Assembly (NCBI GenBank): GCA_034660555.1
Contig: JAYEJL010000157.1
Coordinates: 1 to 37,554, forward strand
Direction: 5' to 3'
From: Thermotogota bacterium
GTDB lineage: Bacteria; Thermotogota; Thermotogae; Petrotogales; Kosmotogaceae
DNA length: 37,554 nt
The notes below the pieces were generated by a model. It ran no database searches and had not been told where the DNA came from. It was given only the letters and a program-made list of their open reading frames with translations. Shown piece by piece: positions 15,493-22,658 of the stretch; position 1 is the stretch's first letter; every line of letters begins with the position of its first letter. The position numbers were made by a program, and so were the translations under genes.

Positions 15493-16287
15493 TTATCCTA
15501 GTCTTAATACTGCTTCCGGTGTAATTATCTGGAAGGTTAGAGACTCGATAAAGTAGAATCTTACCTTATCCTTAAGTTCGTCTTCATAGCCTAGAGACAT
15601 ATCCTGGCCCACTACAAGTTTAAGATCTCCACCTCTCAAAGAAACCAGGAATGGATGATCAAAACGTGGTGAAAGAATGATTTCACCATCAGAGAGAAGG
15701 TCTTTGACCAATCTGTTTAACGGATAACCCTGGTTTTCTGCAATTAATTTGGACCACTGTTTTCTGTCAATAACAAGGGCAAAAGGACCTTCTACGCCTT
15801 CTTTTTTAAATTCTGAAAGTGACTGATTTATACCCTGTAATAGAGAAGAAGGACTATCAGTTTTAACGTTCATTTTTCTTTCTTCAAGAACTGATTTCAA
15901 TCCCTTTATATTTGCACTTTCCAGCCCTGTATAGATGAGATTATCCTCAAATTCAGCAATTTTTCTAGCTGCATCATCAAGTGGTTCGAGATCTACAGAT
16001 GGGTTACCTCTATTCATATCATCGAGAAGCCTCTTGTCCAGTTCAAAAGGAATTTTCAGTTCTAGTAAAGGAAGAACTTCTCTCTTTGCCCAGTAAACTC
16101 CTGCAGCTTCCCGAACTTGTGATATTCTCCCCAGGTGTTGGGCAGAAAATTGCCAACCATGAGGTCCGTCAATATCTACAAACTTTCTTGCGTATAACTC
16201 GGGTTTTAGTACCTCTCTAGCACGGTCATCAATTTCTTCCCATACTTCATCGGTAACAGGAGCTATATTACTCTTTAAAAAATCCAT
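15493..16287 (-). CDS. Family 1 encapsulin shell protein (Linocin M18/maritimacin-like)
   Basis: W..ID.RA, ARKFVDIDGPHG, IAEFED, GVEGPF, GYPL, SLRGGD.KL.VGQD.SLGY, ESLTF...PEA; 264 aa. Confidence 0.96.
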   Translation of the reverse strand: MDFLKSNIAPVTDEVWEEIDDRAREVLKPELYARKFVDIDGPHGWQFSAQHLGRISQVREAAGVYWAKREVLPLLELKIPFELDKRLLDDMNRGNPSVDLEPLDDAARKIAEFEDNLIYTGLESANIKGLKSVLEERKMNVKTDSPSSLLQGINQSLSEFKKEGVEGPFALVIDRKQWSKLIAENQGYPLNRLVKDLLSDGEIILSPRFDHPFLVSLRGGDLKLVVGQDMSLGYEDELKDKVRFYFIESLTFQIITPEAVLRLG

Positions 16288-16298
16288 AATTTCACCTC

Positions 16299-16628
16299 TT
16301 ACTTCTTGCTTAGTCCTAGATCGTTTCCTGATCCTTCGCTTTCTCCATCCTCTTCGATTTCTGTTATGGAACCTTCAGTGAACAAATATGTTTTCAACTC
16401 GTCATCCCAGGCTTCCATATTTCTTCTAAGCCATTCGATGATCATGGCAGCATGTTCAATTTCTTCATCACGGTTATGTTCCAGGATTGCTTTAATCGAT
16501 TCATCTTTTGCGACATCAGCTCTCTGGTTGTACCAGTCAATCGCTTCAACCTCTTCTTTTAAACTATTCAATGCTCTGGTAATATCCTTAGCTTTTTCTG
16601 AAAGTTCATTCAAATCTTCATGATACAT
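16299..16628 (-). CDS. Encapsulated ferritin-like protein (Flp/EncFtn) with C-terminal cargo-loading peptide
   Basis: SLKEEVEAIDWYNQR, HNRDEEIEH, EWLRR, YLFT. Acidic linker then GNDLGLSKK. Directly upstream of the shell gene. Confidence 0.95.
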   Translation of the reverse strand: MYHEDLNELSEKAKDITRALNSLKEEVEAIDWYNQRADVAKDESIKAILEHNRDEEIEHAAMIIEWLRRNMEAWDDELKTYLFTEGSITEIEEDGESEGSGNDLGLSKK

Positions 16629-18977: not shown

Positions 18978-20177
18978 TTGTTAAATTTCTTGAAATGGTA
19001 TACTCATTTTTTCATGAAGGAGAGTTTTGAGAAAGTTCCCGAGCGTTACACATTTCCTATCGAAAGTCCGGGATTGTATATTCATTTCCCTTTTTGTAAA
19101 AGTAATTGTGGTTACTGTCCCTATCTCAAAATGAATTATGATGAGCAGCTTGTTTCTGATTACATTATATGGCTCCAGAGAGAGAGGATGTTGCACGGTA
19201 CATCGAGATTTTCATCTCTGTATATTGGTGGTGGCAGTCCTTCCAATGATATGAAAGCAATAAAGCAGATTTTGCAATTTATTGCAGGTGATATAAACGG
19301 GGAAATAGCTATGGAAGTTCATCCCGATGATACTCAAATGAGCAATTTGCAAAGGTTAAAGGAACTCGGAGTGAATTATGTCAGTCTTGGAATACAAACT
19401 CTTGACCAGGAATTACAGAATAAAATTGGTCGAGGTATATCCAGGAATGTAAATATCAAATCGCTAGAAAATGTTATGAACTCGGATTTTGATGTAGTCA
19501 ATGTTGATCTCATTCTTGATCCAGGAAAAGACTTCAATATACTTCATAAAGATTTTATTGAAGTGACTAAATTCAAACCACAGCAAATTTCAGTATACCC
19601 ATTAATGCCATTTTCATTTACCTCTATACATATATCGAATAAACCAGATATTGAAATTTCTTATTTTGAAAAACTTGATGAATTTGCTGAAGATCTTGGT
19701 TACAGAAGAGATATGCTGTGGACATACACAAACAAACAAAATCTCAGATATTCCTCGGTTGGGAGAGAATTTTATCTTGGGATGGGATTAAGTGCCTCCA
19801 CTTTCACGGGTAATTATTTTACGACTAATACATTTTCTCTGGGTAGCTATATCAAATCAATTCAAAGAAAAAAATTACCCATAGCAAGTTTGCGGACGTT
19901 TAATCAATTCCAGGGAGCATTGTTTTTTGCTTTTTGGAAATTGTATATAAATGAGCTTTATCTCGAACCTCTTTTGAAGTATTTCCCCGAAGCTGAGAAT
20001 AAAATAAGAATGTTCTTGTGGTTTCTTGAGAGGGCAAGGCTGGTCAAAGAGAGGGATAACTATTACTTCCTGACAAAAAAAGGAAGAAGAGAGATGCATA
20101 AAATGGAAGAATGGATTACTCATCATGTTGTTGATCCTCTCTGGAGCAAACTAAGAAAAACAAAGAAAAGAAAATAG
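18978..20177 (+). CDS. HemN-like (class C) radical SAM protein of unknown substrate
   Basis: LYIHFPFCKSNCGYCPY (CxxxCxxC), YIGGGSP, EVHP, SLGIQ, NVDLI. TTG start after AAGGAGG. Confidence 0.88.
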   Translation: MLNFLKWYTHFFMKESFEKVPERYTFPIESPGLYIHFPFCKSNCGYCPYLKMNYDEQLVSDYIIWLQRERMLHGTSRFSSLYIGGGSPSNDMKAIKQILQFIAGDINGEIAMEVHPDDTQMSNLQRLKELGVNYVSLGIQTLDQELQNKIGRGISRNVNIKSLENVMNSDFDVVNVDLILDPGKDFNILHKDFIEVTKFKPQQISVYPLMPFSFTSIHISNKPDIEISYFEKLDEFAEDLGYRRDMLWTYTNKQNLRYSSVGREFYLGMGLSASTFTGNYFTTNTFSLGSYIKSIQRKKLPIASLRTFNQFQGALFFAFWKLYINELYLEPLLKYFPEAENKIRMFLWFLERARLVKERDNYYFLTKKGRREMHKMEEWITHHVVDPLWSKLRKTKKRK

Positions 20178-20206
20178 CAGCCACCTGCCGGTGACCGCTA
20201 TGAACG

Positions 20207-20431
20207 CTATGCTTCACTCCAAATTGTATCATTTAACCAGTCTACAACAAGATCTATTGCTATGTCCAAAATTCTGTCAAAAAGATCGTAATCTATCTGC
20301 CACTGTTCTTCTGGTAAAACCGTATATACCAGTTCTTTTAGTTCCTCTTTTTTCTTTTCACCTTCGCCCGGTCTTTCCAATAAACAGGCTCCAAGAGATA
20401 AAAGGCCGCTAAGTGATCTTAAGAAAAACAT
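20207..20431 (-). CDS. Small hypothetical protein with holin-like GEGEKKKEE motif
   Basis: RBS AAGGAGG upstream of ATG 20431; acidic amphipathic C-terminal helix. The holin likeness is by eye only. Confidence 0.7.
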   Translation of the reverse strand: MFFLRSLSGLLSLGACLLERPGEGEKKKEELKELVYTVLPEEQWQIDYDLFDRILDIAIDLVVDWLNDTIWSEA

Positions 20432-20452
20432 ATATTAACCTCCTTTTTTTAG

Positions 20453-20483
20453 AATAAATAAAGGGGGGATATCCCCTCCCTCT
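20453..20483 (-). terminator. Intercistronic hairpin / leaky terminator
   Basis: Minus strand AGAGGGAGGGG-ATAT-CCCCCCTTT followed by ATTTATT. Confidence 0.55.
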
Positions 20484-20487
20484 GTTA

Positions 20488-20697
20488 CTAGATAAGATTA
20501 AAGAGTACGTTAGATGTTCTATTTATGATACTTGCATAATCTGTGCTGTAACCAGCGGGAATAACCTTCAAAGTAACAAGAATATCCATTACATTTTGTA
20601 CGTCTGTTGCTGTCAATGTATCCAGTGGAGATCTCAAGGTTATTCCTCTTGAGCGTCCTTCCGTAATGTTGTACCATCTCATGCTTAGGGTTTCCAT
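20488..20697 (-). CDS. DUF2922-like small protein
   Basis: TLSMRW...GITLRSP.DTLT..DVQNVMDILV...ASIINRT matches my recollection of DUF2922. RBS AGGAGGTGAAAAT. Confidence 0.75.
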   Translation of the reverse strand: METLSMRWYNITEGRSRGITLRSPLDTLTATDVQNVMDILVTLKVIPAGYSTDYASIINRTSNVLFNLI

Positions 20698-20741
20698 ATT
20701 TTCACCTCCTCAAATTTATTCTTGTAGAATCATTGCGTTAA

Positions 20742-20978
20742 TTAGTCTATGGGTCCAAGATTATCTGTGGTTATAAGTCTAATCTCGACAACTGAATAAT
20801 CTGTAAGAGATGCCAGATTGTAGGCAGCATCGTAAGCTTCCTGTTCGGTTATTGTGCTTTCTACAGAGATAGATTGTCTGTATAAGACCGGTTCACTATC
20901 TACAATTTCTCCTGTATCCCAAACAATCTGAAGTCTCTTTTCTTTACCCAGATTTTGTACAGTTGAACCAACTCCCAT
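20742..20978 (-). CDS. DUF1659-like small protein
   Basis: RLQIVWDTG....EPV...QS....T.QEAYDAA..LASL..YSVVEIRL pattern. RBS GGAGGTGAAAATA precedes ATG 20978. Confidence 0.75.
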   Translation of the reverse strand: MGVGSTVQNLGKEKRLQIVWDTGEIVDSEPVLYRQSISVESTITEQEAYDAAYNLASLTDYSVVEIRLITTDNLGPID

Positions 20979-20996
20979 TATTTTCACCTCCAATTT

Positions 20997-21022
20997 TTTA
21001 TTCGCGTGGCCACACGAATAAA
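20997..21022 (-). promoter_or_regulatory. 26-nt near-perfect inverted repeat (5'-UTR stem-loop or operator)
   Basis: TTTATTCGCGTGGCCACACGAATAAA. The single mismatch is a G-U pair on the minus-strand RNA. Confidence 0.6.
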
Positions 21023-21187
21023 TAATATAAGATATAAAAATTTATTCCTAAGCTTCTTTTTAAAAGCGTATTTTTATTTATATAGGTCTATGAAGGTTTT
21101 TTATAAAGGAGCAAGTGGATTTTGTGATTATGTGAAAATTATCAGAAGTAAATTACTAAGGGTATAAATATATATAATATGTTGCAT

Positions 21188-21213
21188 AAAAAAACCGCCC
21201 GGAGGGCGGTTTT
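21188..21213 (-). terminator. Intrinsic terminator (bidirectional shape)
   Basis: AAAACCGCCC-GGA-GGGCGGTTTT with a T-tract on both strands. Confidence 0.88.
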
Positions 21214-21234
21214 GTTTTTGTTAAATGTGTGTGC

Positions 21235-21789
21235 CTATAATCCTACGTAGACAGTTCCTTTTATGCTTATCTGACCTTCAACACTTTCAGTTTCTTCATA
21301 GTCATAATTATGTTTAATTACAACATAGAAATTTGCTTTTTCTTCATCAGATACGAGGAATGTTCTTAAGTTTTCTATTCCTCCATAGTTTTTACTATTA
21401 ACGGTTTTCTCTGTAGTTCCTGGCTTCATTGTTCCTTCAATAGCAAGATCAGATGGATCCGTTGAGTATCCGGTTCTGCTTATGTATAGTTCATAATTAA
21501 AGGCATCGAAACTTTCTGGATGTAATACAGTAGCAGTTACAGTAAGTTCTATTTTCTTGATTTTAGCATCGAATGGTACTTCAGCATCTATTAAAGGATT
21601 TTCTACTTCAGTTTCAAACTGATATTCATTCCATTCATTATTGCTAGCTGTTGTGAACTCATAATCAATACTTTCTGATGTTACTTTAAAATCAACGTTC
21701 AACGCTCCAGGTATTTTTATTGGAATAGTGCAAGAGAAGAAAAATAAGACTATTACCCCAATTAGTAAACTAAATAACATTTTTCTCAT
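21235..21789 (-). CDS. Hypothetical lipoprotein (beta-rich)
   Basis: MRKMLFSLLIGVIVLFFFSC lipobox; AGGAGGT RBS before ATG 21789. Confidence 0.78.
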   Translation of the reverse strand: MRKMLFSLLIGVIVLFFFSCTIPIKIPGALNVDFKVTSESIDYEFTTASNNEWNEYQFETEVENPLIDAEVPFDAKIKKIELTVTATVLHPESFDAFNYELYISRTGYSTDPSDLAIEGTMKPGTTEKTVNSKNYGGIENLRTFLVSDEEKANFYVVIKHNYDYEETESVEGQISIKGTVYVGL

Positions 21790-21878
21790 AATATTACCTC
21801 CTGATTTATTCGATTGTTTTAAATATTTTACCAATTCTATTTTAATACTTATTTGTTTCTCAAACAACCTTATTTTGC

Positions 21879-22658
21879 TTACTCATGATAATTTTTCTTG
21901 AGTTGTTCTTTAACATTCACTTTCATTGTTTCTAGAGAATTAACAAATGCTGAAATGTTATCGATTCTGATCTGTTCCATCGAAATGATTTTATATGGTG
22001 AGACGTCAGCAAGGATCTTTCTGGCAAGTTCTCCACTTCTTAGTTCAAGACTTTGAACGAGTATTTGATTTGCATTATTAACAGGAAGTGTTTTCGTATT
22101 TCTCAGATTAACATGTACCAAATCGGATTTTTGGAGTTTGAATAATGGGATTTGGGAGTAGTATATGCTGGAGAGAAATCTATTTTCTACAGGCGGAAAT
22201 AACCCGGGGAAACCGACAGATAGCCTCAATAAATTATGGCTGCTTCCACCTAACAGTTCAACTTTTTTATCTACGATATTGATTACTTCTATGTTAATGT
22301 CGTTTATTTGCTCATCAGAAATGTATCTCAGTATTGCATCAAAAGTTTTCCATCCTGAAACATGATCGGTAACGGTCCAGCTTGCACAGTAATCTCTATC
22401 TAGCCTTCTTTGATATTTTTTCTGCAAATCAAATTCTCTTCCCATAGCCTTTATTGGTTCTTGGAATCTGCTCAGGAATATCATAAGCTTGCGAAGAGCA
22501 AACTCTCGGTCATGACACCTTCTAATTATCCAGTAGAAACCAGCAAGACCATTAAGTATAGTCCTCTCAAATTTTACATTATCGATTTCTTCTATAGCTT
22601 CCAGAAAAGGTATTGAAGTTAAAGCCTGCAGAAGAAAACCACCGGCCCGGATATTCAT
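21879..22658 (-). CDS. Degenerate patatin-like protein lacking catalytic motifs
   Basis: SVGFPGLFPPV parallels SMAMPGVFPPV of the neighbour. No GxSxG or DGG. Four-nt overlap with the upstream patatin gene. Confidence 0.6.
   Translation of the reverse strand: MNIRAGGFLLQALTSIPFLEAIEEIDNVKFERTILNGLAGFYWIIRRCHDREFALRKLMIFLSRFQEPIKAMGREFDLQKKYQRRLDRDYCASWTVTDHVSGWKTFDAILRYISDEQINDINIEVINIVDKKVELLGGSSHNLLRLSVGFPGLFPPVENRFLSSIYYSQIPLFKLQKSDLVHVNLRNTKTLPVNNANQILVQSLELRSGELARKILADVSPYKIISMEQIRIDNISAFVNSLETMKVNVKEQLKKNYHE

Follow-up and report, generated by a model that had tools for sequence, protein, structure and literature searches.

A phylum-wide three-gene operon of the Thermotogota with a predicted self-pairing mRNA start and a possible origin in virus-like elements

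We analysed a 37,554-nucleotide stretch of DNA from a Thermotogota bacterium of the Kosmotogaceae (contig JAYEJL010000157.1 of assembly GCA_034660555.1, positions 1 to 37,554; hereafter the window), and in it three small minus-strand open reading frames (ORFs) of 69-78 amino acids (aa): a DUF1659 gene (gene 1), a DUF2922 gene (gene 2) and a third gene with a distant resemblance to phage holins (gene 3). They represent a widespread operon reduced to its smallest chromosomal version, which likely derives from a small virus-like element and likely serves to open the cell wall. The reading that we prefer, with a probability of roughly 0.4, is that of a virus-derived wall-opening operon whose mRNA would dimerise through its 5' end and thereby sharpen induction. 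The gene pair is already known, and our searches turned up no description of the LL-H-like third gene, of the phylum-wide resident form or of the self-pairing mRNA start.

Results

A self-complementary centre in gene-1 leaders

The leaders of gene 1 share one layout across the phylum. A -10-like word comes first; about 7 nt further on lies a loop-less, GC-rich palindrome, which is followed by an A-rich run and then by the ribosome-binding site (RBS). Under our final criterion, an 8-nt Watson-Crick palindrome with at least four G/C in the central six positions and at most 175 nt from the start, 63 of 79 gene-1 leaders, belonging to 9 of the 10 families, carry the palindrome. Other upstream regions at these loci carry it in 24 of 289 cases, and those of the window's own genome in 30 of 486. 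What is kept is self-complementarity and not a word. The core comprises 13 different hexamers (15 in another count, some of them off-register), and the word differs between close relatives (loci L059 and L064; L095, L097 and L100) with a centre that stays self-complementary. Among the 25 leaders carrying a CGTA-type word, an anchor chosen after viewing, 22 show a GC-rich palindrome of 6 nt whose centre lies 17-30 nt beyond that word; the rate in shuffles was 5%. Stems alone do not yield such palindromes, because self-complementary centres were found in just 5 of 263 ordinary intergenic hairpins and in 1 of the 38 distinct hairpins, differing in sequence, that follow gene 2 in many relatives. 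In the window, the element folds better than 200 shuffles (z -4.1; all folding z-scores were obtained in this way). The 5' stem-loop of the original prediction, which had been made from the letters alone, is present as an element but not as an ordinary stem-loop, the conserved trait being the self-complementary centre.

Most of these palindromes are too short to form good hairpins. Over 69 leader segments, the median predicted energy was -4.3 kcal/mol at 37 °C and -1.0 at 65 °C for the monomer, and -27.3 and -16.6 kcal/mol, respectively, for the two-molecule duplex, the latter values being partly given by construction, since any palindrome scores well as a dimer. We regard an RNA dimer at the leader palindrome as somewhat more likely than not. 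Three leaders with long stems (L109, L113, L116) present the palindrome in a loop with purines on either side, as does the dimer initiation site (DIS) of HIV-1 (PMC7357161). The retroviral DIS and the palindrome in the oskar 3' untranslated region likewise consist of a GC-rich self-complementary word of 6-10 nt in an untranslated region, sometimes in a purine-flanked loop (PMC7357161), and the trait typical of a DIS, self-complementarity despite a changing word, is the one kept here. Our candidate differs in lying at the very 5' end of a bacterial chromosomal mRNA, in having its dimer predicted from sequence and in coming without a known packaging protein. At several loci of family f9 (L109, L111-L113, L116), a further palindrome, AT-rich and of the TATACAT/AATGTATA kind, precedes the -10 word and may be a regulator site.

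A mapped transcript in T. maritima

The position of the palindrome within a transcript can be examined in Thermotoga maritima. The start that we predicted from its locus (L122), 669932, was noted in the same step as the table look-up and equals the published one: Table S2 of PMC3636130 gives an experimentally identified start for a transcription unit at 668412-669932. This unit covers five genes, namely genes 1, 2 and 3, the sigma-like gene and the GH73 gene TM0633, and its transcript begins a few bases before the palindrome. At 80 °C the T. maritima leader is predicted to be unfolded as a monomer and to pair as a dimer at -13.1 kcal/mol. By the same spacing, the transcript of the window would start near 21015. 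Its first 12 nt would be the palindrome core (21004-21015), where RNA-RNA pairing is predicted; a location inside the transcript, the other property of a DIS, thus holds for T. maritima and is extended to the window by analogy. Gene 1 of L122 (5255-5380) is frameshifted in the assembly (41 aa) and has 64 codons in the re-sequenced annotation (PMC3636130), so the frameshift is likely a sequencing error. The same source lists an antisense transcript over TM0632/TM0633.

A conserved gene pair

Genes 1 and 2 matched the two families proposed for them, DUF1659 (PF07872, 37.5 bits against a cut-off of 24.1) and DUF2922 (PF11148, 38.3 bits against 25.5). We hold the identity of the cassette to be close to certain. 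They are paralogues of each other (hhalign E 1.1e-4, probability 56%). Against three genomes of the same genus, synonymous and non-synonymous codon differences numbered 20/4, 29/1 and 26/5 in gene 1, 20/7, 21/9 and 20/6 in gene 2, and 26/2, 34/4 and 24/7 in gene 3; this large excess of synonymous change indicates purifying selection on all three ORFs.

The closest described counterpart is the SroA/SroB pair of Staphylococcus aureus. Its genes belong to the two Pfam families found here and stand in an identical order, have strong Shine-Dalgarno sites (10.1101/2022.10.19.512975; PMC13192611) and are tied to a small alternative sigma factor, and a heterodimer is reported for the pair: SroA and SroB bind each other and not themselves in a two-hybrid assay, and SroA, besides binding SroB, stabilises sigS mRNA (10.1101/2022.10.19.512975). 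The sroAB genes are the top target of the stress sigma factor SigS. By analogy, the products of genes 1 and 2 very probably form a heterodimer. The S. aureus genes are bicistronic, whereas here there is a third, holin-like gene, with a hydrolase added in relatives; here, too, the mRNA is predicted to begin with a palindrome. Folds of the beta-beta-alpha-beta type also brought up phi29 p6 and p56 and T7 Gp2; these scores lie within the range of chance arrangements and come without sequence similarity, so that inferring function from them is unsafe.

Distribution and gene order in the phylum

Of 151 genomes of the phylum, 112 encode DUF2922, mostly in single copy and usually with both partner genes; among genomes of good quality the figure is 95 of 117. 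The assignment of these genomes to the Thermotogota follows from T. maritima, the one control genome with a match, and from the Atlas clusters closest to gene 3, which come mostly from this phylum. Gene order was surveyed at 82 gene-2 anchors in 79 regions hand-picked to span the families, a selection from all matches. DUF1659 lies directly upstream of DUF2922 in 79 of the 82, the order of the window and of the single T. maritima unit; gene 3 follows directly in 51 and is within the module in 67, which bears out the three-gene synteny expected at the outset. A short gene with sigma-70 region 2 (sigma-like) lies downstream in 25 modules, and a GH73 or SLT hydrolase at most four genes away in 8 (5 co-oriented GH73, 3 SLT on the opposite strand). 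The flanks vary between genera and often hold polysaccharide genes. A divergent HTH+S24 repressor accompanies three of the four loci of family f6; at L083, L085 and L086 this is an HTH_3 plus Peptidase_S24 gene (LexA/CI-type) directly upstream of the module.

Some lineages depart from this arrangement. In genus g5 (L013, L014, L016-L018, L022, L023, L025, L059-L067), genes 2 and 3 are separated by a four-helix-bundle gene (PF05635, weakly Avd-like) read from the opposite strand. Genomes of this genus hold as many as four copies of the module, next to an HTH_3 gene and a PD-(D/E)XK gene, which suggests renewed mobility. Gene 3 stands ahead of gene 1 in L068, L069, L071 and L077-L081, and in L077-L081 the palindrome is directly 5' of gene 1, past the gene-3 stop and away from the predicted transcript start. 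At L070 (4206-4499) and L072 (4329-4607), gene 3 is followed by a coiled-coil protein of 92-97 aa with a hydrophobic C-terminus, which has no Pfam or PHROG match and which we take to resemble lysis proteins of the XhlA/BhlA type.

Gene 3 and wall hydrolases

The window's gene 3 belongs to no Pfam family and has no match to PF09682. In an alignment of 35 members of its family, 24 matched the PHROG 'holin' phrog_6918 (best E 0.002) and six matched PF09682 at E<=1 (best E 0.013), and 21 had a best 19-residue hydropathy of at least 1.6. The likeness to LL-H-type holins (PF09682, phrog_6918) consists of weak profile similarity over a helical 'VE..G.G..KK..V' region and of an association with wall hydrolases: among 101 proteins returned by a profile search with the gene-3 domain, 42 of which were scanned for further domains, the domain follows an Amidase_2 domain in P0033 and P0084. 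Several others (P0041, P0043, P0044, P0062, P0064, P0070 and more) are proteins of 320-360 aa carrying the domain twice, and there is a weak repeated match to a saposin-repeat protein (P0019). The label 'holin-like' of the original prediction is thus retained as a distant resemblance, and gene 3 as a lead to a putative hydrolase-associated helper that we do not class as a holin.

Relatives on Bacillota plasmids

The co-occurrence of the pair with YvrJ in Firmicutes, which the original prediction mentioned, was found on annotated Bacillota plasmids. There the pair is accompanied, in varying subsets, by YvrJ, one of the wall-related proteins amidase, glucosaminidase or LysM protein, a sigma factor, an integrase, a single-stranded DNA-binding protein (SSB) and a rolling-circle Rep; in several Clostridium records it stands without such partners. 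A complete circle of 7,470 bp from L. johnsonii contains little besides the genes of the cassette, and PHROG holds small families for both Bacillota proteins. What these cassettes have in common with those of our phylum is that a small gene of membrane type and a wall hydrolase come after the pair, in many cases together with a sigma factor. The small gene is YvrJ there and LL-H-like here, and the window copy lacks hydrolase and sigma factor and is a resident single copy instead of being plasmid-borne.

Lactobacillus plasmids (L175, NZ_CP039262.1; L165, L176-L180) share a DUF1659-DUF2922-YvrJ-integrase-SSB-Rep_trans-LysM block, preceded by a conserved leader with a terminator-like hairpin, which is a candidate small virus-like or mobilisable element. 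Six of seven related Lactobacillus leaders have a palindrome of 6-8 nt, in three words, at one place inside this hairpin, where predicted folding usually pairs it within the molecule; as a parallel to the palindrome of the Thermotogota this is a hint only.

The locus in the window

The features of the locus are listed in Table 1. The ORFs, the 5' element, the hairpin between genes 2 and 3 and the strong upstream terminator that had been described from the letters are all present in the sequence, as are the near-perfect RBSs, two of them sharing one word. The 3' terminator adds a fourth hairpin absent from that description. The hairpin between genes 2 and 3 had been proposed as one that could lower expression of gene 3; it exists, but the 69-nt spacer that holds it folds no better than shuffles (z -0.35). 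Rfam gave no match near the gathering score in positions 19500-22000, and none at all for the leader.

Table 1. Features of the three-gene operon and its borders in the window
Feature	Position	Strand	Description
Upstream terminator-like hairpin	21191-21213		closes the upstream gene; T runs on both sides; z -3.3
Predicted -10 hexamer	21022-21027	-	TATTAT; from spacing to the palindrome and analogy to relatives
5' quasi-palindrome	20997-21022	-	26 nt, loop-less, centre GGCC; core 21004-21015
RBS of gene 1	20980-20991	-	GGAGGTGAAAAT
Gene 1	20742-20978	-	DUF1659 (SroA family), 78 aa; predicted beta-beta-alpha-beta fold
RBS of gene 2	20698-20709	-	GGAGGTGAAAAT, same word as at gene 1
Gene 2	20488-20697	-	DUF2922 (SroB family), 69 aa; gene 1 paralogue
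Hairpin between genes 2 and 3	20461-20480	-	likely partial terminator or mRNA stabiliser
RBS of gene 3	20432-20443	-	GGAGGTTAATAT
Gene 3	20207-20431	-	74 aa, acidic; phylum-wide family, distantly LL-H-holin-like (PF09682, phrog_6918); domain fused to amidases elsewhere
3' terminator-like hairpin	20174-20201	-	operon end, between gene 3 and a convergent radical-SAM gene; z -5.0

By Pfam scan, the neighbours of the operon are housekeeping genes (radical SAM, patatin, GTPase, MMPL, amidohydrolase, encapsulin), and the ten neighbouring ORFs scanned (15.5-26.5 kb) include no integrase or phage gene, in line with the original prediction. The encapsulin shell gene (PF04454) and its ferritin-like cargo gene (EncFtn, PF22277), at 15493-16628 on the minus strand and about 3.6 kb from the operon, form a known system that shows no link to the operon in relatives. 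Upstream of the operon, a lipoprotein-like gene (21235-21867, minus strand) diverges strongly among genomes of the genus, and its neighbours do not (L005-L007, L020). A second DUF1659 gene of the same genome (G000) lies at the end of a 2.3-kb contig, C94 (L001 1489-1716; L137). Its closest relatives, 80-93% identical, are mostly on contigs labelled Atribacterota, so that C94 may be misbinned or recently acquired.

Discussion

Our results support the original prediction in part, namely in the families, in the three-gene order and in a connection with mobile, phage-like genes for lysis. They can be joined in the following scenario. The operon would be mostly quiet until stress induces it, the signal acting via the operon's sigma-like factor or an S24-type repressor at those loci that have one. 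Accumulating transcripts might then pair at their 5' ends and be shielded from 5'-end decay, giving a switch-like response that depends on concentration. Genes 1 and 2 would be translated about equally and provide a heterodimer, likely binding nucleic acids, that modulates this RNA switch as SroA and SroB modulate sigS mRNA. The gene-3 product, expected to be scarcer because of the internal hairpin, would assist from the membrane a wall hydrolase lacking a signal, and this partner could be unlinked or lost in the genome of the window. We put the odds of a role in lysis or release at about even.

Several observations weigh against this scenario. The palindrome criterion was changed twice, with different wordings (from 44/78 leaders against 15/292 other regions, to 53/79 against 15/289, to the final 63/79), and its threshold was thus tuned after viewing; the relatives compared, moreover, are not independent of one another. 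Sixteen of the 79 leaders fail it, among them L084 and L127, which have an ordinary hairpin, and L068, L069, L071 and L076, which have nothing. Mismatches of the G-U and A-C types number 8 and 3, too few to indicate a constraint at the RNA level. By eye, no such palindrome is evident in 23 leaders of an Atribacterota-like group, and those of Bacillota other than Lactobacillus have one in two of nine cases, at unrelated places. As to the other parts of the scenario, most loci of the phylum have no hydrolase near the operon, the Pfam scan of neighbouring ORFs found none beside the window operon, and its genome yielded no partner with the sigma-like profile. None of the 35 gene-3 family members reaches the PF09682 cut-off, and the window protein is shorter than LL-H-type holins, acidic (net charge -9) and without a clear membrane span (best 19-residue hydropathy 1.43). 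The effects reported for overexpression of SroA are metabolic and not lytic (PMC13192611). Finally, the locus tags of T. maritima genes 1-3 were not found in the peptide and protein tables of PMC3636130, the keying of which is unchecked, and this is weak evidence against constitutive abundance.

The strongest competitor, in our view somewhat less likely, is that genes 1 and 2 are a regulatory pair of the ordinary SroAB kind, joined by a third small protein. The palindrome would then act in the DNA, as the operator of a dimeric regulator that might be the pair itself, or simply as a hairpin stabilising the 5' end. Neither a hairpin nor a fixed operator needs a word that changes among close relatives around a self-complementary centre; by the hairpin definition applied to the controls, 56 of the 79 leaders have none, and gene 3 and the recurring hydrolases are left unexplained.

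It is more doubtful that genes 1 and 2 build a particle. The two might be partner subunits of the coat of a small virus that has escaped recognition, the domesticated operon still making a nucleoprotein particle with the palindrome as packaging or dimer signal, and gene 3 and the hydrolase releasing it. The filament or particle of the original prediction belongs here and finds little favour: fold searches gave no significant match to a capsid or any other structural protein, and three queries each against 50,697 phage records and against viral contigs found nothing. Several records class the Bacillota Rep among the MOBT relaxases and may therefore be mobilisable plasmids, and neither Rep, integrase nor known virion genes are among the ten ORFs scanned around the window operon or are regular neighbours in its phylum. 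We give still less credit to a bolder version, in which the pair would be the coat of tiny rolling-circle Bacillota viruses, the 7.5-kb L. johnsonii circle being one, and the operon of the Thermotogota would package its own mRNA dimer through a retrovirus-like 5' palindrome and release it with the holin-like helper. A decaying remnant of a mobile element without current function, to which the flanks differing between genera and the duplicated, truncated or interrupted loci might point, is largely refuted by the purifying selection, the presence in most good-quality genomes and the mapped T. maritima transcript.

Viruses and a few eukaryotic mRNAs account for most of the functional RNA homodimers known (PMC7357161). 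If an inducible wall-opening operon with a dimerising mRNA is the correct reading, a bacterial mRNA 5' end selected for self-complementarity across a phylum would be a natural and easily testable case of concentration sensing or packaging by an mRNA, for which T. maritima, a laboratory hyperthermophile, provides a mapped start site. The operon also offers a handle on DUF1659 and DUF2922, two very common families without known function.
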